Positions 2,413-59,588 of a stretch of DNA of 64,000 bases are shown here, piece by piece. Location: contig CAYWNT010000001.1 of the NCBI GenBank assembly GCA_964459725.1, forward strand, positions 91,529-155,528, read 5' to 3'. Under the pieces are notes generated by a model. The model saw only the letters and a program-made list of their open reading frames with translations. It did no database searches and had not been told where the DNA came from. This stretch comes from an uncultured Gammaproteobacteria bacterium (GTDB lineage: Bacteria; Patescibacteriota; Patescibacteriia; Patescibacteriales; UBA12075). Each line of letters opens with the position of its first letter. Within the stretch, counting starts at the first letter, position 1. The translations under genes were made by a program, and so were the position numbers.

Positions 2413-5400
2413 ATGCTTGTCAGATTTTTAAACAAAAATAGAATCGCATGGGTTTTTTTGGTTTTATTTTTAATATTTTCCATTGTTTTTTCTGCTAATT
2501 TTAAGGAAAATATTGAAATAGTAGGTGCTTTTGAAACAGATAGAATCAATGTTTACCCAGGAGAATTCTCAATTGAGAAAGAAAGACAGATTCCAGAATG
2601 GAAAAATATAGATAATTCGTTTGTTCAGGATTTATCAGAGGTTGAACACATAAGTAAATTCGACCAAAATAATTCTGCAAATATCATTATTGGCTTAGAA
2701 TTGCCACCAGAAGATGAAGAGTCTGGTGGTGGCAGTTCTGAGTCTTTTTTTGATGAAGAAAATAGTGATAATCAAGAATCAGAAAGCAGCGAACAGACTG
2801 GAGATGAAGAAACCGCAACTACTTCAGTGGAGGGTGGTGAGATAGAGGACGAGGAAGATGTGGAAGTAAATATTTCTACCAGCACAAATGATTCTTCGGG
2901 GGAAGAAGAAATAGCAGATACAGATGTAGTTGAGGAGCCAGTTATCACTGAAGAAGCTCCAGAAGAGACTGTTGAAGAAGAGATTGGTTCATCCACTGAG
3001 GAAGCAGAAGAGGATAATGACGTTTCAGTTTTTGATAAGGCAATTAGAGGATTTAAGTCTGTTATTGGATATACTAAATCATATTTTAGGGATTTTAGAT
3101 CAGCTCTAGCGCAAGACGCTACCTCTACCGAAGAGAGTGAAAATAATTTTGAAGGAGAAGAAATTGTAGAGGAGGAAATAATTATAGTGGATGAATATTC
3201 AAGCACTACTACCACTCAAAATGTAACTGCTACCAGCTCTGCTGACCTCGATTTGGTCCTGGACGAGAATGAGGCCACCTCTACCGTGCTTAACGAGGAA
3301 GAGGGGCAAGAAGTTGGGCCAACTGAAAGTAGGAATGAGCAAAAACTCAGCTCTAGTATTATTTATTCTGATTTTGGTCTACCAGAGGATTATGAAGAAA
3401 AGGAAATCTCCAATGTTCAATTGAGAGTATCAATGGCGGCCATGAGTAATAAGCTAGGTGATGAATTGAATTTTGCCTTTAGGACTGATTCCGAAGGAGA
3501 GTGGCTGGATATTAGTAATTATGATATCTACACTCCAATTTCCAATTTAAATAATAGCGGTTATTACCTGATCGGCATGCCTATTTTTGAGGGATGGAAT
3601 GATATTGACGATCTCCAGGTTAGGGTGAGCTACAAAAGTGAAGACAGGGAGCAGCATAAGCAAAAAACTAGTATCTATGTTGATGCCATGTGGTTGGAAG
3701 TAGATTCAATTTTGCCTAATGAGGTGATTTTTGAAGAAGAGGAAGAAGACGCGGAGCTCTTGGAGCTTAAAAAGAGATTTTCACTTGATTTATTGTCTGA
3801 AAAATTGAGTTTTGAACCTGGCGAAAGTCCTAAGTTCAAATTTAAGTTCAAGGAAAACAGAGGATTAATTAGAAGAATTGGCGCAGGCATGATGAGTGTC
3901 GTTCGAGATGAGTACTCTGATATTGAGATAGTGGCACATTTAATGAGAGGGAAGGAAGAAGTTAGAAGCTTTGATTTGAGTACGAATTATTTAAATGATG
4001 GAGAGTTTGAGCTTGATTTTGGCTCTGAGATGCGAGAGTTTCAGCCCGGAGAATATAGGCTGGAAATAGAGATCAAGGAAAATAACCTAACCCTTGGTCG
4101 CATCTTAGACTTCTCGCAAGACTTTAGTTGGGGGGTACTGGCAATCAATCCAAACAAAACAATTTATAATCTAGGTGAAACTGCTTATCTGCAAATGGCA
4201 GTTTTGGATGATCTGGGGCACACTATTTGTAACGCTGATCTCTCTTTGGAAATAATAAGTCCTGACGGATCTGTAGTTACACAAACAACAGAAGGGGAAC
4301 TCGTTAGAAATCCAGAATGTGGACCTGATAATGTCATTGACACTCCTGATTATTATAGTTTCTACGAGACTGAAGAAGAGGGAGAGTACACCATGCGTCT
4401 GGTAGCGACTACTACTACTGGAACCAAAGAGATATCGGACAAGTTTGAAGTGAGAGCCAATGTTCCATTTGAAATAGAAAGAGTAGGGTCGACCAGAATT
4501 TACCCTTGGGCAAACTATGAAATGCGTTTTAATATCAAGGTGAATGAGGATTATCAAGGTGAGTTTGTCGAATATGTGCCTAGATCATTTATGTTTGTTT
4601 ACAGAGATGGGGCTCGGGAAATTATCAATGGGGACACTAAGGAGCTTCACTGGGATGTAGATTGGAAAGCAGGCGAGATTCATAGCCTTCGATATATATT
4701 TGATGCTCCAAATATTTCTCCGGAATTCTTCTTGTTAGGTCCTGCGTCTCTGCCAGCTTCCGGGTTTGAGGAGATTCGAAAATGGCAGATAGCAAGTGAC
4801 GCCGAAATTGACTATGTGATAGCTGAGGCTATTGGGATTGATGCTGGAACTACTGATACCGTGAACTGGACTGAGGCAGTCAATGCTGGAGCAGGGTCAT
4901 TTACAGGTGGAGACAAGTATTTTGTATATGTAACTGCCGGATTCCTTGGTTCAGCTACAGCTGTTAACACTGATTTTGAAGTAAGATACGGCGCAACTCC
5001 TCAGTACACCGGTCTAGTTGAGGCTCCTGGATCAAATAGTGATGATTTTCAGATCTCATGGTTTGATGTCTATGACCAGCCTGGATCACCAACTGATATC
5101 TCTGTTCACTATCGCACCAATTCAGGTCAGTCAAACGCTCTGCATGCCCAGGTAATAGCTATTAACTTGAGTGATTTAAATAGTAGTGACTGGAAGTACG
5201 CCAGCAATACAAGTCTGACTCAGCATACTACCGGCTTTGTTGATTTTGTAAATGTTACCTTAGATGCTGCAGACGGATCTAAGGATTGGCTAGTATTTGC
5301 CATGGAGGACGTGATTATAGATTCAGCCGGAGTAAATTATCAAGGTGAGATCTATGATGGATCAACTTCTTATATGGGGTATAGTATGGAGGGTGAAAAT

Positions 5401-8400
5401 ACTGCTGAACAGTTGCCTTATGTTTTGATGGCTCCGTTTGATGATGTGGCCCAAGATGCGGTATTTAGTTTTAGGGCAAGAGATGATGCAACCGGCATCA
5501 ATGATCATAATGGAAGTAAGATATTTGCTCTTAATTTAGATGCCTTTGAATCACATAAGACCTATTATGCGGACACTAATACTGCAATAGCGGCCAGTCC
5601 ATCATGGACTGAGATTGGTAACCTTAATTCTGGGGGAAATTATCAACCTTCTACCACGGGAAATCAGTTTATATTTGCTTCCTGGATTGATGATGCTGCT
5701 AGTGCTTCAGCCGGAACTAATGACAGATTGCAGGTGAATGGGTCTACAGTTCCAACAGGATGGGATTGGGCACAGGGTGGAGCAGTAAGTAGAACTACTC
5801 ATGATGGAAGTGATGAAAATTTATTCAACATCTCTGCTGTAGCCAGTATTCCTACCACAGGAAATCCAATTGATATGGACGCTACGGAAATTATCAGAAA
5901 TTCTCAAATTGCAGATGAGGTCAGTATGACTGTCTTCTCTACGGAGTTAGTTGGTCAGTTAGCCCCAACCGGGAATTTTAATTCAGTTGCTCAAAAAACA
6001 GATGGTTCAAAAATAGTTGATATTTCTATTGAGATAAATGATGCTAATTCAGATAACATAACGGCTAGGATAGACTATGCAACAGGCACTACTTGTAGTT
6101 TTGTCTCTCCCGGAGATCCTACCCTGGAAGAAGCAACTACTACAATCATAGAAGATTTTGGTGATGTTCATATTGATAATGAAAGCACTTATCAGGTCGG
6201 TACAACTAGTTATGAAATTATAACTACAAGCGGGTCAAATACGGTTAATTTTGACTGGAATGCATATTTAGATTTGCCAGGAATTGAGGGAAGTTATTGT
6301 GTGCAGTTAACCGCCAATGACGGAACAGTTGATCAGAGTCCGGTAGCTACTACAACTATTTATATAGACAATATAAACCCTACAGCTCCCGGGGTCTGGA
6401 CAGTTGAAAATATTTATTATGACGCTATAGAGTTTAATTTTGGTGCTACCTCAAGTGATACGAATTTTTCTGAGTATAGAATTTATTACAAGGAAGGTAC
6501 TTCCGGAGTAAGTCAGAGTGATAACTATTGGGGATCAAGTAATGATTCTAACTTAGGCTATGATGATTTCAATGGAGCAACTAGTACCCGAGTTGGCATA
6601 CTAAAGCCTGATACTGACTATGTATTTGCAGTTTACGGTGTAGATATTTATGGTAATGCTGCTAGCTCCTTAGAGCTTACTGTCAAAACTGGAACCGGTA
6701 GAGCTAATACCGTTGTTTTCCCAGCAGGAGTTTATTCAGCTGATGGCACTACTGGGCAAAATACGGATACTGATTATACATTTAATACTTTTAATTTTGA
6801 CTTAGTTGAGACTGGGGTAAAAATTGAAAATGCTTTTGTAATCTTCGAGGCGCAATTCGAAGCTTATGTAAATAACGCTAATCCTTATACTGGTTACTCA
6901 CTTTACTTTGATACTTGTGCAGAGCCTTGTACTGCTAATGCGGTTAGCGGAACGGATGCTGCTTCTACTACCGATACTACAACTTTGGCCAATAATGAAT
7001 CGGAGAGTAATCAAGGTAAGATGATTTTTGATGTAACTGAGGAGGCTCAAATGGCAAGTTACACTGGTGGTCAAATGGAGGCACAGGTCGGTTATAGAAT
7101 AAATAATGGTCTAACTGCTAACTCTATAAGTGCTGCCCGGGCCAGGTTGGTTGTTACCTATTCTTATCATCCTGATTCAGAGTCGCTGACCAAGACAGTT
7201 GTCTATCCGCTGGAGTCGACTGCAGCAGGGGATAGTGGTTCTAGACAGTCATCTCAGGCTATATGTACGGTTGATAATAATTGTCCTTTCTTTACTTACA
7301 ACATGGATATTCCGGAGTTTAGCTCTTCTCTTGCAGATTGGTTTAGCGTGACTGGTGTTAGGGATGGTAGTACTGATTCAAGGATTGACTTAAATATTGA
7401 AGGAAATGACAACCCAAGCTCAGTCTATGTCCATGAAGGAGCACTTGGAGGTCAGCAATCAACCTATCCAAATTTGATATTTGATGATACTCCAGGATTT
7501 ACTGAGAACACAGATCAAACATTAGAATATCATGTTTACACTGGAGGAACTACTTATTTGATGGGTGGAGAAGTTTATGATACTTATACGGCTTCAGCTA
7601 CAGCTCCAATTAAAACAAGAACTGTAGTTTTTCCTGTCGGAGTTTTGAATAACGGGATCACTACCGCCACATCTTCTGGAGGGGTAGATGTTTATTTCCC
7701 AGAAAACGGAACAACAAATGGGAATGTAGATATCAAGAGAGCTTGGTTCAGGGTTAAGACCAATAATAGAGTTGATGGCTCTCAGTACATGTATCTGAGA
7801 TCAAGAGTGGGAAGCACTGCCTCTTCATCAATGTATAGTTATAATTATAGTCCAGGAGGGTCAGTTATTAAGCCAGTCTTTGATATTTATCATGTGCTTG
7901 CTACTACCACATACAGCGAGCTAGATAACGCTAACGCCACAACTCCGGTAAAGGTAAATATTGATACTAGAAACAGTACGGTTAACAACGGAGGAACTTC
8001 AGTAGAGCTGGTGGTGACATACACTTACTCTTCAGAAGCTGAAGGATACCTAACATCACTTCTTGTAAATGGTGGACAAGTTGACAAGGAAACAAATACA
8101 GCTCTAGCTACTGGAACTACTGCTGCCTTAGTATTCCCTGAGGATGAAAGTAAGAGAACCTTGCTTGCTGCTGGCATGAATGCTAGTTACTTAATCAGCG
8201 ACGGAGATGGCGGGGTGCCGGTGGGTTATACCATAGATATTAATATGTCTACCACCACTCCAGTTTGTTCGGACATATTTGAGTCTCCAACTGATGGAAT
8301 CAATGCTTTTATTGAATACACCAAGGATGTAACAGCTGCGATCTCTAACGCTCACAATACAACTTATAACACTTGTTATTCTAATGACCAGGGCGGGGAT

Positions 8401-54091: not shown

Positions 54092-54106
54092 AATAAAGCC
54101 GTTGTA

Positions 54107-54320
54107 GACCGACATAAAAGTCGGGACTCCGACCGAAGCGTCGGAGCTCAACCCGAAGGATCCCCCTTGGGGGCGGTACCCACCCGAAAGTCCCGTTCGG
54201 TATGGGCGGGGAGCATCCCGAGTACTCGGGAGAAGGTGTCGTAATTTGTTGAATAAAATTAAAGTATCTAGCTTGCATTTCGAAGTTTCCTGTCTGTCGA
54301 CAGGCAGATAGCGTAGTAGT
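54107..54320 (+). other. GC-rich, hairpin-dense non-coding segment of unknown class
   Basis: Visibly GC-rich against AT-rich flanks. Hairpins include ccgac-ataaaa-gtcgg (54109-24), ctccgac-cgaagc-gtcggag (54127-46), cccc-cttg-gggg (54162-73), ccgaa-agtcccg-ttcgg (54184-200), tcccgag..ctcggga (54216-31) and ctgtctg-tcga-caggcag (54290-307). gaaagtcccg recurs at 54186 and 54507. Confidence 0.5.
54289..54307. repeat. Member of a short GC-rich palindrome family (CCTGYCTGYCGRCAGRCAGG-like)
   Basis: cctgtctgtcgacaggcag. Related copies are cctgtctgccg...caggcag (54469-54507, in the T-loop of the tRNA-Thr-like gene) and cctgcctgccggcagacagg (56336-56355, in the tRNA-Tyr fragment). Confidence 0.55.
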
Positions 54321-54392
<72 letters not shown>

Positions 54393-54535
54393 CAAAGGGT
54401 GTAACAATAGAGCACTTCCATGCGTGCCCCGTGTTTATCTACGGGGGTAAGGAAGGGGTCTCGGGTTCCCTGTCTGCCGATTTATGTGCCTGTAGGCGTA
54501 CAGGCAGAAAGTCCCGACAACGGCTCAATAAAAAT

Positions 54536-54558
54536 CATGGCTTTCGCCATGTTTTTTT
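54536..54558 (+). terminator. Rho-independent terminator after the tRNA-Thr locus
   Basis: catggc pairs with gccatg across the loop tttc, followed by T7. Confidence 0.75.
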
Positions 54559-55498: not shown

Positions 55499-55596
55499 GG
55501 GTCGATACTCAAGCGGTCAATCACCGCTTATAGCGGGACAAGCGAGGGCAGACTGCCACCGCCTTCGGCGGGGTGTCGTCTGGGCGACATAAATCT
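55499..55596 (+). pseudogene. tRNA-Tyr-like 5' two-thirds carrying two hairpin insertions
   Basis: gggtcgatactcaagcggtcaa[22-nt insert, 55521-42]cgagggcagactg[34-nt insert, 55556-89]taaatct. Outside the inserts it is identical to the intact tRNA-Tyr at 55906. It diverges after position ~41. Confidence 0.6.
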
Positions 55597-55606
55597 ACGT
55601 TATATT

Positions 55607-55852
55607 ATGTATAAGGCTTATATTTTATATAGTGAACAATTTGATCGATATTATATTGGCCATACAGATAATTTGGAAAATAGATTGAATAGGCACAATA
55701 AAGGATATGTAAAATCAACGAAGCCTTATAGGCCGTGGAAGGTGGTGCACACAGAAGAGTTTGAAACAAAACAGGAAGCATACAAAAGAGAGTTTCAAAT
55801 TAAATCATATAAAAAAGGAGCGGCATTTAAAAAATTAGTAACACAAATATAA
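55607..55852 (+). CDS. Small GIY-YIG nuclease family protein (81 aa)
   Basis: MYKAYILYSEQFDRYYIGHTDNLENRLNRHNKG...EAYKREFQIKSYKK carries the GIY / YIG / R / E pattern. The track ORF (55439-) extends upstream only by reading through the tRNA-like segment. Confidence 0.8.
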   Translation: MYKAYILYSEQFDRYYIGHTDNLENRLNRHNKGYVKSTKPYRPWKVVHTEEFETKQEAYKREFQIKSYKKGAAFKKLVTQI

Positions 55853-55905
55853 TATAAATTTTAAATAGTTAGTGACGATTCGCTAACTGTTGAGAGTTTA
55901 TAGCT

Positions 55906-55988
55906 GGGTCGATACTCAAGCGGTCAACGAGGGCAGACTGTAAATCTGCTGGCTTCGGCCTACGTAGGTTCGAGTCCTACTCGGCCCA
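55906..55988 (+). tRNA. tRNA-Tyr (anticodon GTA at 55940-55942), long variable arm
   Basis: The cloverleaf reads gggtcga ta ctc aagcggtcaac gag g gcaga ctgtaaa tctgc tggcttcggcctac gtagg ttcgagt cctac tcggccc a. No CCA is encoded. Confidence 0.9.
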
Positions 55989-55997
55989 CTAAAAAAA

Positions 55998-56024
55998 AGA
56001 GCACTGAAGTTTCAGTGCTCTTTT
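55998..56024 (+). terminator. Terminator after tRNA-Tyr
   Basis: An A8 run precedes agagcactgaa paired with ttcagtgctct, followed by tttt. Confidence 0.7.
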
Positions 56025-56075
56025 GTATTTAAAAATTTATTTTTATACCGATAAAGCTCTCTATTCGCAGCGGAT

Positions 56076-56164
56076 CAGACTGCCACCGCCTTTGGCGGGG
56101 TCCCGCAGCGGCGGGATAAATCTGCTGGCTTCGGCCTACGTAGGTTCGAGTCCTACTCGGCCCA
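56076..56164 (+). pseudogene. tRNA-Tyr-like 3' two-thirds with a 34-nt anticodon-loop insertion
   Basis: cagactg[34-nt insert, 56083-116]taaatctgctggcttcggcctacgtaggttcgagtcctactcggccca. Outside the insert it is identical to the intact gene. There is no intact 5' acceptor strand upstream, only a degenerate ccgata...gctc. Confidence 0.6.
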
Positions 56165-56204
56165 CATACAAAAGAACACTGTGAATGCAGTGTTTTTTTG
56201 TATG
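56165..56204 (+). terminator. Terminator after the tRNA-Tyr-like 3' copy
   Basis: catacaaaagaacactg pairs with cagtgtttttttgtatg (core aacactg/cagtgtt), followed by a T-run. Confidence 0.7.
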
Positions 56205-56227
56205 TTGTTGAGTAGATTGCTTGAACC
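56203..56227. repeat. Diverged inverted copy of the tRNA-Tyr 3' half
   Basis: tgttgttgagtagattgcttgaacc compares with the reverse complement of the tRNA T-arm/acceptor, tgggccgagtaggactcgaacc. Confidence 0.4.
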
Positions 56228-56327
56228 TAGTTGACCAAAGTGAATCATCAATCAATCATCAATCAAAGTAATAACAAGGGAAACAAATACGAGGTAATAC
56301 CATAATGATCGAAAAATGCTCTGCTTT

Positions 56328-56367
56328 TTCGAGTCCCTGCCTGCCGGCAGACAGGCTACTCGGCCCA
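56328..56367 (+). pseudogene. tRNA-Tyr 3'-end fragment (T-loop to discriminator) interrupted by a 20-nt palindrome
   Basis: ttcgagtc[cctgcctgccggcagacagg]ctactcggccca. A hairpin plus T-rich tract follows at 56381-56409. Confidence 0.6.
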
Positions 56368-56445
56368 CAACCAATATAAAACGGTACAATTTGTGCTGTT
56401 TAATTTTGTTTAATATTAGCAATAGTTATACAGTAAAGGATTTTA

Positions 56446-57150: not shown

Positions 57151-57221
57151 GCGGGCGTGGTATAATGGTAGTACAAGAGTTTCCAAAACTTTTAGCGGGG
57201 GTTCGATTCCCTCCGCCCGTG
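57151..57221 (+). tRNA. tRNA-Trp (anticodon CCA at 57183-57185)
   Basis: The cloverleaf reads gcgggcg tg gtat aatggta gtac a agagt ttccaaa acttt tagc ggggg ttcgatt ccctc cgcccgt g. The acceptor stem has a G1-U72 pair. No CCA is encoded. Confidence 0.8.
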
Positions 57222-57629
57222 CAAAATATGAACAGGACTTTTTGTCCTGTTTTTATTTTGTGCGAGTGGAGCTTGAATCGAACACCTTTGAGAAATGTAA
57301 CATGAAATGATAAGTATAAAAACATGAATAAATTTTGCATTTCAAAATGAATATGTTTACCTGATTGAAAACGCCTTGGCTTTTCGATTCCCTCCGCCCG
57401 TGCAAAAATAAACAAGGTCACAAATTGTGATCTTGTTTATTTTTGTATGGGCTGATGCAGAATCGAATCCCGTTGATTATAGAATTTAATATAGGAAAAC
57501 TTTATTAAATAAAGTAAATTTTTAGAACGAAATAATAGTGAGCTGTATGATGGTGCTGGGGCTTGAACCCTTCGATTCCCTCCGCCCGTGCAAATATAAA
57601 ACAGTCCTGAGTACTCAGGGATGTTTTTT
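57202..57629 (+). repeat. Array of three copies of the tRNA-Trp 3' end, each with its own terminator, interleaved with inverted 3'-half-like copies
   Basis: ttcgattccctccgcccgtgcaaa occurs at 57202-225 (within the tRNA), 57383-406 and 57571-594, a spacing of 181 and 188 nt. Terminators lie at 57231-58, 57411-44 and 57602-29. Inverted diverged copies are tgtgcgagtggagcttgaatcgaacacc (57259-86), tgtatgggctgatgcagaatcgaatccc (57444-71) and tgtatgatggtgctggggcttgaaccc (57544-70). Confidence 0.75.
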
Positions 57630-57713
57630 ATATATTAAAGATTTGTTAACAATAATTAATAAATAATGGTATAATATAAATATAACTTAAATACATATTA
57701 TAATATAAAATTT

Positions 57714-59588
57714 ATGAAAAAATTGTTTATATTTTTAGCTTTTTTGCTCCTGCCATTATCATCTCAGGCAAGCGATGATTATGATTGGAATGATTTTAGT
57801 CAGTCTTGTTTTACTAAGACATTTAATATTTACTCAGTGGATGATGAGGTTCTAAAAGTTGAAGTTCCTAGGGAGAGTGACCTCTTTTTTGTGCAAAATG
57901 ATGCTTTATTGCCAAATAAAGTTTTTGATTATGGGACAGGAGAGTATATCGAGCATGATGTAGTGAGAGTGACTGGAGCTAGTTACACAAGTAAGGATAT
58001 AAGCTATTTAAATGATGGAAATTTACAGACTTCTCTTTACTTCAATCCGTATGCAGAAAGTAAAAAAGGAATCATTATTGATGCAAGAGAAATTCTGACT
58101 GCCAACTCATTTTCTTTTAAGTTCGATTACAAGGGGGATTACGCCCCTCATTATCATATATCAAAGGACGGCACTAGTTACATAGAGGTAGAAAATGTTG
58201 AGAACTACGATTTTCGATACCTTAAATTAATTTTTAGTGAGCACGAAGAAATCCCGAGTAAAAAGTTATCCATCCGAGAATTAGGGTTTCTTAGATATGA
58301 AAATTATACTTATTTAGTTAAGTCAAATTCGACTCAAGTGATAAGAGTTTTTGCCGACTATAAATGCGAAGACATTGAGAAGGTCCATCAGGCTATAAAT
58401 TTTGTTGGCAGTAAAACTCGTAATGCTGTGTTTGGCATTGATGCAAACACAAAAGAATATAAAATTTCTTTTAATGATAATCGATTTTATAATTCAGATA
58501 TAGATAGGGATACTATTTTAAATGATTATGACAATTGTCCTTTTGTTTATAATAAGGATCAGGTGGATTCTGATGCTGATTTTGTAGGAGATGAGTGCGA
58601 CTTGAATAATGAGGTGAAAAATTTCCATGAAAAAGACAGTGACAAGGATGGCGTGGGAGACTCAGAAGATAATTGTCTGAGTCTGTACAATCCTCAACAA
58701 TTAGATAGTAACGCCGACAAGAAGGGAGATCTCTGCAGCGATGATGATAAGGATGGGGTAATCGGTTATCTAGATAATTGTATTAATGTAAAAAATAAAG
58801 ACCAGGCAGATATTAATGTAAATTCAATTGGAGATGCTTGCGAGTTTGACAAGGATGAGGATGGAGTATTCGATGGTTTTGATAATTGTATAACCAGCCC
58901 AAATCCAAATCAAATAGATGAGGATAATGATGACATAGGTGATATATGTGATAACTGTAATTATTATAATCCTAGACAGATTGATAAAAACAATGACGGA
59001 GTAGGTGATAGATGCGAAGAAGAAAAGAGGCTGGAGCAGGACCGTGATAGTGATGGCATACTAAATGAGGATGATAATTGCCAGGACGTGATTAATTTTG
59101 ATCAAAAAGATAAGGACAAAGACGGTATAGGTGATAAGTGTGATAATTGTATAGATATTCAAAACTCTGACCAAAAGGATGAAAACGAAAATGGTGTAGG
59201 AGATCTATGTGAAGATGAGGATGGTGACAACGTCGTAGGATATCTGGATAATTGTCCAAAACATAAAAACACTGATCAGTCTGACCAGGATAATGATGGG
59301 GTAGGAGATATGTGCGAAGATGAGGATGGAGATAAATTTGTCGCCGCAGAAGATAATTGTCCGTTTGATTACAATAAAGATCAGTCAGATGTTGACAAGG
59401 ATGGAGTTGGTGATAAGTGTGACGAAAAGGACGATAGGTTTATTGAATCCAACAAAGAGCTATTCTTCAGTTTTATTATTGTGATTGTGTTAGTTTTTTC
59501 TGTTCTGATATTTTTTATGTTAAAAAAGATAAAGAACGATAGTCAGGGCGAGGGAGAAAATGAAAAAAATAACGATGAAATAATATAA
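57714..59588 (+). CDS. Secreted, C-terminally anchored thrombospondin type-3 (calcium-binding) repeat protein
   Basis: It has a signal peptide (LFIFLAFLLLPLSSQA). More than 12 repeats of DxDxDGxGDxCDNC / NxDQxDxD lie between ~58500 and 59430. A C-terminal TM segment (LFFSFIIVIVLVFSVLIFFML) is present. Confidence 0.75.
   Translation: MKKLFIFLAFLLLPLSSQASDDYDWNDFSQSCFTKTFNIYSVDDEVLKVEVPRESDLFFVQNDALLPNKVFDYGTGEYIEHDVVRVTGASYTSKDISYLNDGNLQTSLYFNPYAESKKGIIIDAREILTANSFSFKFDYKGDYAPHYHISKDGTSYIEVENVENYDFRYLKLIFSEHEEIPSKKLSIRELGFLRYENYTYLVKSNSTQVIRVFADYKCEDIEKVHQAINFVGSKTRNAVFGIDANTKEYKISFNDNRFYNSDIDRDTILNDYDNCPFVYNKDQVDSDADFVGDECDLNNEVKNFHEKDSDKDGVGDSEDNCLSLYNPQQLDSNADKKGDLCSDDDKDGVIGYLDNCINVKNKDQADINVNSIGDACEFDKDEDGVFDGFDNCITSPNPNQIDEDNDDIGDICDNCNYYNPRQIDKNNDGVGDRCEEEKRLEQDRDSDGILNEDDNCQDVINFDQKDKDKDGIGDKCDNCIDIQNSDQKDENENGVGDLCEDEDGDNVVGYLDNCPKHKNTDQSDQDNDGVGDMCEDEDGDKFVAAEDNCPFDYNKDQSDVDKDGVGDKCDEKDDRFIESNKELFFSFIIVIVLVFSVLIFFMLKKIKNDSQGEGENEKNNDEII

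Follow-up and report, generated by a model that had tools for sequence, protein, structure and literature searches.

What kind of element repeats the 3′ end of a transfer RNA (tRNA) gene behind that gene? The question is raised by a 64,000-nucleotide (nt) stretch of Patescibacteria DNA (contig CAYWNT010000001.1, positions 91,529 to 155,528 of the forward strand; hereafter the window), in which an intact tRNA-Trp gene is followed by further copies of its own 3′ end. A first reading of the letters alone (the sequence-only reading) had described a periodic array of tRNA ends, terminators and inverted copies, and had offered scars of serial integration, a tRNA-mimicking miniature element, or decoy or antisense RNAs as explanations. 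We find that the array consists of tRNA-Trp and two tandem non-coding units of ~185 bp that belong to one conserved family. It is a new variant of the oddity known as RtT behind the tyrT gene of Escherichia coli, and not a new kind of mobile element.

By exact search, the 24-mer TTCGATTCCCTCCGCCCGTGCAAA occurs three times on the plus strand, at 57202, 57383 and 57571, as had been claimed, against an expectation of zero in shuffled sequence; no further match was found in the 64 kb at up to three mismatches. The copies are spaced 181 nt and then 188 nt apart (Table 1). The first overlaps the 3′ end of tRNA-Trp and extends just past it, and in the two downstream copies identity to the tRNA begins exactly at the first T-loop base, so that the proposed T-loop start held. 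The claim of a different hairpin terminator after each copy was likewise borne out: the terminator scan, run on both strands, called the hairpins at 57230-57252 and 57605-57620, and the middle one (57424) came from the inverted-repeat search and the folds. Terminator 1 scores as a terminator on either strand. A unit consists, in this order, of an intrinsic, bidirectional terminator, an antisense arm corresponding to ~25 nt of the tRNA end, an AT-rich spacer of ~70-95 nt, a small GC hairpin and an exact copy of the tRNA end. The GC hairpin is clear before copy 3, where its G-run matches the 5′ strand of the T-stem, and poorly formed before copy 2. The intervals between copies (157-164 nt) are non-coding, with no open reading frame within the units, and the promoter-like site of the next gene marks the downstream edge of the array. 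The array is 100% identical in four independent assemblies (ENA, JGI, Logan) and is therefore not an assembly artefact; copy-number polymorphism, which had been suggested as a check, is absent among these four.

Table 1 Features of the tRNA-Trp array and of its surroundings in the window
Feature	Positions	Strand	Evidence
tRNA-Trp, anticodon CCA, intact, no encoded CCA end	57151-57222	+	ARAGORN; Rfam tRNA 62.9 bits
24-mer copy 1: T-loop, T-stem 3′ strand, acceptor 3′ strand, discriminator and CAAA	57202-57225	+	exact match
Terminator 1: A-run, hairpin 57230-57252, T-run	57226-57259	+	terminator scan on both strands; fold
Antisense arm 1, GTGCGAGTGGAGCTTGAATCGAACACC, complementary to tRNA acceptor 3′ strand, T-stem and T-loop	57260-57286	+	inverted repeat; p=0.0012; fold
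Unit A interior, AT-rich, homologous to L007 and L031 interiors	57287-57382	+	pairwise z 11.5, 7.5; nhmmer E=1.6e-17
24-mer copy 2	57383-57406	+	exact match
Terminator 2: 14-bp hairpin centred at 57424, then T-run	57407-57444	+	inverted repeat with 31-nt arms, 87% complementary; fold
Antisense arm 2, GTATGGGCTGATGCAGAATCGAATCCC	57445-57472	+	p=0.0002; long hairpin -51.6 kcal/mol, z -10.3
Unit B interior, AT-rich, nearest relative the L010 unit	57473-57557	+	blastn 69.5%/223 nt; z 9.1; nhmmer E=1.7e-20
Small hairpin directly 5′ of copy 3, GGGG-CTTGAA-CCC	57558-57570	+	homologous hairpins in relatives
24-mer copy 3	57571-57594	+	exact match
Terminator 3: hairpin 57605-57620, then T-run; no antisense arm after it	57595-57631	+	terminator scan; fold
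Promoter-like site of next gene, TTAACA-18-TATAAT, 11/12 with TG	57646-57675	+	promoter scan
Next gene, thrombospondin type 3 (TSP3) repeat protein	57714-59588		Pfam TSP_3
tRNA-Thr	54321-54393	+	tRNA search
tRNA-Tyr	55906-55989	+	tRNA search

The arms behind terminators 1 and 2 match the reverse complement of the tRNA end better than shuffled sequence does in local alignment (p=0.0012 and p=0.0002), and both rank in the top 0.1% of all 60-nt windows in the 64-kb stretch. The sequence-only reading had placed a further inverted copy directly before copy 3; this candidate (57558-57570) is at chance level (p=0.21), and only the two behind the terminators stand. In the acceptor part of arm 1, three of the four departures from a perfect complement are G-U compatible on the plus strand by direct reading, in agreement with what had been noted. 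Copy, terminator and arm form one continuous hairpin of ~90 nt, with folding energies of -54.9 kcal/mol (z -10.5) at the first copy and -51.6 kcal/mol (z -10.3) at the second; the last copy has a plain terminator only (-16.6 kcal/mol, z -1.4). Unit-bearing tRNA ends fold at -40 to -65 kcal/mol and the other tRNA ends examined at -13 to -37, and among the 31 tRNA ends examined the long hairpins occur only where a unit follows.

All three tRNA genes of the window (Thr, Tyr and Trp) lie on the plus strand, and the parallel that had been drawn with tRNA-Tyr proved sound. Its downstream copies lie at 56117-56165 and 56328-56368 with a period of 176 nt, copy 3 also begins at the first T-loop base, and the arms are made of tRNA-Tyr sequence, an arm giving a hairpin of -52.7 kcal/mol. 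In most instances the plus (tRNA-sense) strand of these hairpins is more stable than the minus strand by ~10 kcal/mol. G-U pairs number 33 on the tRNA-sense strand and 10 on its complement, and the independent tRNA-Tyr unit has the same bias (6 against 1).

Relatives were found by DNA-pattern scans and by look-ups anchored on homologues of L33, a ribosomal protein encoded just upstream of the array; they comprise ~30 related tRNA-Trp loci, denoted below by L numbers. The best L33 protein matches come from Parcubacteria, Falkowbacteria and Buchananbacteria bins. Scans of genome and metagenome contigs with 22-24-mers returned single-copy loci only, except for L007 and L010. Homologous units stand behind tRNA-Trp in at least five other Patescibacteria lineages, with the second copy at a distance of 182 nt in L010, 182 nt in L007, 180 nt in L031, 190 nt in L016/L017 and 181 nt in L013 (of the L012/L013/L014 lineage). 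The module is the same in these relatives (terminator, arm, AT-rich stretch, small GC hairpin, second copy), and L012/L013 have a second copy with a decayed acceptor part. Many other related tRNA-Trp loci lack the module; relatives carry 0, 1 or 2 units. No other unit copy was found in the 64-kb window or in ~50 related loci, and nhmmer profile matches fall only behind tRNA-Trp. Pairwise z scores are 11.5 for unit A with L007, 7.5 for A with L031 and 9.1 for unit B with L010; between A and B the score is only 5.9, which indicates that A and B are paralogues of long standing, not products of a recent duplication. The sequence-only reading had named absence or disorder of the units in close relatives, and arm similarity within chance, as findings that would tell against it; the units are present and ordered in relatives, and arm similarity is above chance.

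Seven tRNA-Trp units and the tRNA-Tyr unit (Tyr_2) were each folded over the span that opens with the first base past the tRNA and closes with the following copy. Every fold has the terminator as a hairpin, together with a long-range helix that takes in the 3′ copy. The arm is the partner of the 3′ copy in the two window units (W_A and W_B), L010, L007, L031, L017 and Tyr_2, although W_B, L010, L031 and Tyr_2 have some 3′-copy bases engaged elsewhere. In L013, by contrast, the partner of the 3′ copy is limited to a few bases at the arm region's 5′ edge. On whether the upstream or the downstream copy is the partner of the arm, lineages with differing copies give conflicting answers. The ~150-nt units that had been delimited by an inverted arm and a direct copy are real by this measure and correspond to the fold of E. 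coli RtT. As a separate observation, several Patescibacteria arms read GGTGAGAAYCC opposite the T-loop (window 57270-57286; L031 ~3462-3475; L013 ~4275-4290), and the E. coli RtT arm reads GGATGAGAAGC (L053 1164-1185). The perfect complement at this place would be TTCGAA or ATCGAA, and the shared TGAGAA would set tandem G-A mismatches against the T-loop.

L007 and L031 are collinear from the gene of an AI-2E transporter (autoinducer-2 exporter family) through the tRNA to the unit. Their homology stops inside copy 2, after which unrelated genes follow (radical SAM in L007, Fic in L031). Identity between them is 76% in coding sequence, 88% in the 5′ part of the tRNA, 94% in the terminator, 86% in the arm and 62% in the unit interior; it is 96% over the 26 nt before copy 2 (the hairpin region) and 100% over the first 16 nt of copy 2. 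This alignment shows the terminator, the arm and the hairpin plus copy to be conserved above the coding level, and the unit to have been inherited collinearly with its flanking gene. The pre-copy hairpin has undergone compensatory changes, with GGGGC/GCCCC in L010 and GGCCT/AGGTC in L007 and L031. The tRNA alleles CCCTCCGCCC, CCTAGCGCCC and CCCTCATCCC differ between lineages, and each lineage's arm pairs best with its own allele, as found for W_A, W_B, L017, L012 and L013; a comparison of arms with alleles by eye revealed double substitutions at T-stem and acceptor positions. Judged from these comparisons, the arm tracks the local tRNA allele.

The nearest known counterpart is found in E. coli. 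There, transcription enters the tyrT repeats and stops by a Rho-dependent route, and one of the units encodes a small peptide, Tpr. Egan and Landy reportedly described in 1978 a 178-bp sequence repeated 3.14 times behind tyrT, each repeat with the last 19 bp of tRNA-Tyr. In the K-12 sequence, we counted three units with a 178-nt period and 95% identity; a fourth, which has diverged, lies between tyrT and tyrV. The units all end in AATCCTTCCCCCACCACCA, and all contain a 22-nt arm with 86% complementarity to the T-arm of tRNA-Tyr. The Rfam family RtT (RF00391, rttR) scores 133-138 bits on these units, and in the outer helix of its consensus the arm pairs with the downstream 3′ copy. Read directly, the E. 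coli unit has as its 3′ part a fragment of the tRNA-Tyr variable region and T-arm, split by a GC-rich insertion in the T-loop. In PMC3318445 and bioRxiv 10.1101/2024.07.17.603846, one unit is said to give a 171-nt rtT RNA (Bosl and Kersten 1991), a processed product that is linked to the stringent response and whose role is called unclear.

The window arrays share with RtT the tandem arrangement directly behind a tRNA gene and on its strand; in both, the last part of each unit repeats the tRNA 3′ end from within the T-loop onward. The period is also close, 178 nt in E. coli against 181 and 188 nt behind tRNA-Trp and 176 nt behind tRNA-Tyr, and in the folds of W_A and W_B an internal arm complementary to the T-arm and acceptor strand closes the unit onto its 3′ copy. 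A remnant of the T-stem precedes the copy in both, and the insertion at the T-loop in E. coli resembles the one before the T-loop in the window: here a short 5′ T-stem remnant and a hairpin-forming insertion of 9-12 nt precede the copy, as in L031, where GGTGTGG, CCTTTTCAGGTC and TTCGATT follow one another. However, the two arrays come from different phyla and, for the main array, follow different tRNAs (Trp against Tyr); the window copy is 24 nt long and lacks CCA, against 19 in E. coli; the window units are AT-rich diverged paralogues, whereas the E. coli units are GC-rich and 95% alike; and every window copy is followed by an intrinsic terminator, whereas no hairpin plus T-run follows the E. 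coli copies. Because of these terminators, the window arm can also extend a terminator into a hairpin of ~90 nt. Given that order and period match but that the RtT model does not, that the units are AT-rich with their own terminators, and that tRNA and phylum differ, we call the array RtT-like and not a member of the family. A counterpart of the Tpr peptide was also considered and rejected: short open reading frames cross copy 3 of the window and copy 2 of L010, but by direct reading they use different frames of the 24-mer.

The explanation that we tentatively prefer, at a little less than an even chance, is that the array is an RtT-like tandem repeat of a tRNA tail, which changes through local duplication and conversion and affects termination or processing in cis. 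Units would arise by local duplication of the tRNA 3′ third together with terminator and spacer, and they would be gained, lost and homogenised as the short repeats of the tRNA end undergo unequal crossing-over or gene conversion with one another. Local duplication and exchange are favoured by the single family and size of the units, by a window without recombinase or transposase (Pfam scans of 20 window open reading frames, including most of those above 150 amino acids), and by the paralogy of terminators behind successive copies (z 8.2 in L012, 5.4 in L013 and 4.6 for terminators 1 and 2 of tRNA-Tyr); terminators 1 and 2 of the tRNA-Trp array are weakly paralogous, with z 3.9 against a baseline of 2.4-3.5 for unrelated terminators. 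The units would act in cis on the tRNA-Trp transcript, each as a terminator; three terminators in series stand between a strongly expressed tRNA and the next gene. In read-through RNA, the arm could zip with the upstream copy into an extended terminator hairpin of ~40 bp or with the downstream copy into the closing helix of the RtT type. Such a stack may insulate the next gene from tRNA transcription and yield structured, processable RNA ends.

A number of observations weigh against this explanation. The RtT covariance model finds nothing at E<=1 over 5 kb of the window, nor at E<=10 over 511 nt, so that the array and RtT are alike in architecture and not demonstrably homologous. Strong terminators precede the arms, so that only read-through RNA would include them, and the promoter scan called no consensus promoter inside the units, which is also why a candidate internal promoter at the TTGA(G/T)(A/T) motif conserved 3′ of the arm was dropped. 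The 75 nt on the 5′ side of each copy resemble the 5′ part of the tRNA no more than shuffled sequence does (p 0.31-0.98), and an origin by duplication of the whole gene is accordingly not demonstrated. The arms of L010 and L007 prefer the CCTACC-type allele of their second copies over the adjacent tRNA; the best fit for the L010 arm is the related L031 allele CCTACCGCCC, its own copy-2 allele fitting worse than the tRNA. Moreover, the second copy of L010 is exactly the tRNA-Trp 3′ allele of L015 and L028. Site-specific insertion would also account for these mismatches in L010 and L007, and hairpin-templated conversion could maintain the match between arm and allele without any function. The G-U strand count is inflated by the shared ancestry of the units, and the bias itself could stem from transcription-linked C>T and A>G mutation.

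Other origins of the copies found little purchase. A resemblance by eye of TATGATGG to the D-loop, which would have made the copies decayed whole tRNA genes, failed the local alignment test, and the tRNA model gives no match on the downstream copies at E<=10. The unit interior is neither an inverted copy of the tRNA 5′ part or of its upstream flank nor a copy of local sequence. Rfam searches of the array returned only the tRNA and spurious miRNA-hairpin matches. Transfer RNA genes that carry group I introns have been reported for Patescibacteria (PMC13011429), but no intron model matches here and the inserts are far too short. An integron cassette array was rejected as well: the Pfam scans found no integrase, and the hairpin ends read TTCGATT / GAATCGAA and not GTTRRRY / RYYYAAC, as attC sites would.

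Serial site-specific integration at the 3′ end of tRNA-Trp, the first proposal of the sequence-only reading, is the alternative that we take most seriously, although we consider it doubtful. The units would be remnants of elements, or miniature non-autonomous ones with a recombinase encoded elsewhere, and each arrival would bring a replacement 3′ end and its own terminator while shifting the older 3′ end downstream. Such displaced partial tRNAs, also in stacks, are well documented (PMC9897764; bioRxiv 10.1101/2020.12.28.424599), and the start of the repeat at the first T-loop base, seen in all tRNA-Trp instances and in copy 3 of tRNA-Tyr, is one of the classical crossover sublocations of tyrosine integrases (Williams 2002, as cited in PMC9897764). 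Like the scars at attachment (att) sites known from Islander and tycheposons (Williams 2002), the array has a direct tRNA 3′ repeat beginning at the loop, several copies in series and a variable downstream region in related strains. The last point is seen in L018/L023, L019/L024 and L020, which share identical L33, AI-2E transporter and tRNA-Trp genes and are identical up to ...CCCGTGC, after which they continue in three contexts. The end of a large serine recombinase gene abuts tRNA-Trp in L023, and L018 carries the same sequence; in these strains the tRNA-Trp 3′ end looks like an active insertion hot spot. In L020, the downstream context includes a type I restriction-modification gene and, in either orientation, fragments that resemble the T-arm. 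The T-loop start, this strain-level junction and the allele mismatches of L010 and L007 keep site-specific insertion alive, as do the L010 second copy with its L015/L028 allele and the end of L007/L031 homology within copy 2, with different genes following. On the other hand, no integrase or transposase was found in the 64 kb. The intervals are ~160 nt here and kilobases in displaced partial tRNAs, they contain no integrase remnants, and they are non-coding, mutually homologous and of one length, where random deletion remnants would differ. One unit is inherited collinearly with a flanking gene and has parts conserved above the coding level; successive terminators are paralogous, where one element terminator and one host terminator would be expected; and the four assemblies show no polymorphism. 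A phage or plasmid source of the att-like sequence was also sought, and the scan of viral contigs gave only phage tRNA-Trp genes. Among the viral contigs, L046 (IMGVR_UViG_3300040801_001280) has at 6944-7060 a sequence that ends with GTGTGGGTTCGATTCCTACCACCCGTGCAAAA and matches the 3′ allele found for tRNA-Trp in L015 and L028; ARAGORN calls no tRNA there, and no integrase adjoins the site.

It is unlikely, in our view, that the units are a functionless mutational by-product, in which template switching at the terminator palindrome inverts the tRNA end, slippage or unequal exchange makes the direct copies and conversion homogenises them. The arm does begin right after the T-run of the terminator and mirrors the sequence before the A-run, conversion would explain why it follows the tRNA allele, and small direct-inverted-direct patterns occur in the neighbouring pseudo-tRNA inserts (AAGCGGT / ACCGCTT / AGCGGGA at 55511-55538). 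However, a by-product would not lead one to expect 96-100% identity between L007 and L031 in the hairpin and at the start of copy 2 against 76% in coding sequence and 62% in the interior, compensatory changes in the pre-copy hairpin, or the same one-strand G-U bias in the tRNA-Trp units and the independent tRNA-Tyr unit; most of the other tRNA terminators examined lack extended palindromes, and the interior copies nothing local in either orientation. We give still less credence to a trans-acting small RNA of ~150-180 nt, whose 3′ end would mimic the 3′ half of tRNA-Trp, or whose arm would be antisense to it, and which would titrate or guide a factor acting on tRNA-Trp (a nuclease or processing enzyme, for instance, or a tRNA fragment). 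Speaking for it are the strong conservation of hairpin and copy as a 3′ module, the stable RtT-like fold of every unit and the processed rtT RNA that the E. coli sources cited above describe for an analogous repeat; against it, the units have no promoter-like site and a strong terminator upstream of each, their 5′ two-thirds are poorly conserved (62%), and the acceptor part of the second copy has decayed in L012/L013. A miniature inverted-repeat transposable element (MITE), or a PATE (a hairpin-ended non-autonomous relative of IS200/IS605), with tRNA-mimicking ends that target tRNA tails seems very improbable. Arm and direct copy do make imperfect terminal inverted repeats of ~25 nt around ~100 nt, hairpins lie near both ends, the one-strand G-T bias would fit a single-strand intermediate, and the distribution among related lineages is patchy; Correia- and ERIC-type MITEs, too, are ~150 nt long with imperfect terminal inverted repeats, long RNA hairpins and possible terminator activity. 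Those elements, however, occur as many scattered copies that share one set of ends and come with a target duplication, whereas the window units are confined to the tRNA whose sequence forms their ends. For PATEs as for MITEs, transposase and dispersed copies are missing in the window and, for copies, in the ~50 related loci; sequence inspection revealed no target-site duplication at the units, and one of them is inherited vertically and collinearly. Since the arms of the tRNA-Tyr unit are made of tRNA-Tyr sequence, the apparent ends are local copies and not the signature of a family, and the suggestion of a transposing MITE was not sustained. Mobile-element readings of the units are weak overall. 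One could also imagine, with a likelihood that we again put low, that arm and spare copy together make a functional RNA switch, one with independent evolutionary origins in Proteobacteria (RtT) and in Patescibacteria. In tRNA-Trp precursors that result from read-through, the arm can pair with the 3′ strand of the tRNA itself, which would leave the tRNA unfolded, or with the downstream decoy copy, which would set it free, and the unit would in this way tune the maturation of tRNA-Trp or release a tRNA-tail RNA. In a more radical variant, the hairpin of copy, terminator and arm could be a single-strand att site for cassette-like DNA units of ~180 nt.

The surroundings of the tRNA genes hold further tRNA-derived sequence. 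Around tRNA-Tyr this is nested (55499-56368): a 5′ fragment (55499-55596) has inserts in the D-loop and the anticodon loop, and a small GIY-YIG nuclease gene (55607-55852) lies between it and the intact tRNA-Tyr; in L015, a GIY-YIG gene (1277-1531) likewise stands directly upstream of tRNA-Tyr. A copy from the anticodon loop to the 3′ end (56076-56165) carries a 34-nt insert homologous to that of the upstream fragment, the two inserts being alike to 81%, and one of their hairpins shows compensatory changes. Next in line are a terminator, then an antisense arm, then the third copy, which runs from T-loop to 3′ end (56328-56368) and is split by a 20-nt palindrome. Two Logan contigs (L051/L052) begin at window position 56136, so that short-read assemblies break inside the tRNA-Tyr repeat; the tRNA-Trp array was assembled through. 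The intact tRNA-Thr (acceptor GCCATCG/CGATGGC) lies within a second, split tRNA-Thr-like sequence (54098-54551), whose acceptor strands GCCGTTG (54098) and CAACGGC (54518-54526) match the tRNA-Thr allele of L003. Its colinear blocks (54098-54107, 54145-54150, 54408-54422, 54446-54460, 54509-54514 and 54518-54526) are parted by GC-rich hairpin inserts at position 9/10, the D-loop, the anticodon loop and the T-loop. Nowhere but around the three tRNA genes were GC-rich islands with inserts of this kind seen. The palindromic element CCTGTCTGTCGACAGGCAG and its variants occur only beside or inside tRNA-derived sequence, at 54289-54307 and 56337-56355 in the window and at 4707-4745 and 4842-4868 in L028. 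In L028, a related hairpin, CCTGTCGCTCGCGAGCGACAGG, sits at the 5′ end of tRNA-Trp, flanked by a GCGGG duplication, and a 5′ tRNA-like fragment with the same hairpin lies ~130 nt upstream. Directly 5′ of tRNA-Trp in L010 are three tandem GC-rich hairpin repeats of ~24 nt (GGCGGGCTAGCCTCGCC and variants, 6536-6631), which resemble the tRNA 5′ acceptor strand GCGGGCG. Elsewhere in the window, a single open reading frame of 8,899 amino acids occupies 2413-29112 on the plus strand.

Knowledge of the 178-bp repeats of E. coli tyrT goes back to 1978 and that of their RNA product to 1991, and the repeats have been treated as an enterobacterial curiosity of unsettled function. That the same build recurs in the remote phylum Patescibacteria, behind two tRNAs, with an arm that follows the allele of the tRNA and with parts more conserved than coding sequence, suggests that such tails are general among tRNA transcription units and possibly convergent. 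From a practical perspective, such tails give partial-tRNA and att-like signals that can be mistaken for integration scars in the prediction of genomic islands, and they break short-read assemblies. The many diverged lineages with their differing alleles offer a comparative handle on what the tails do. The finding overturns nothing; it extends an enterobacterial oddity to a cross-phylum pattern.

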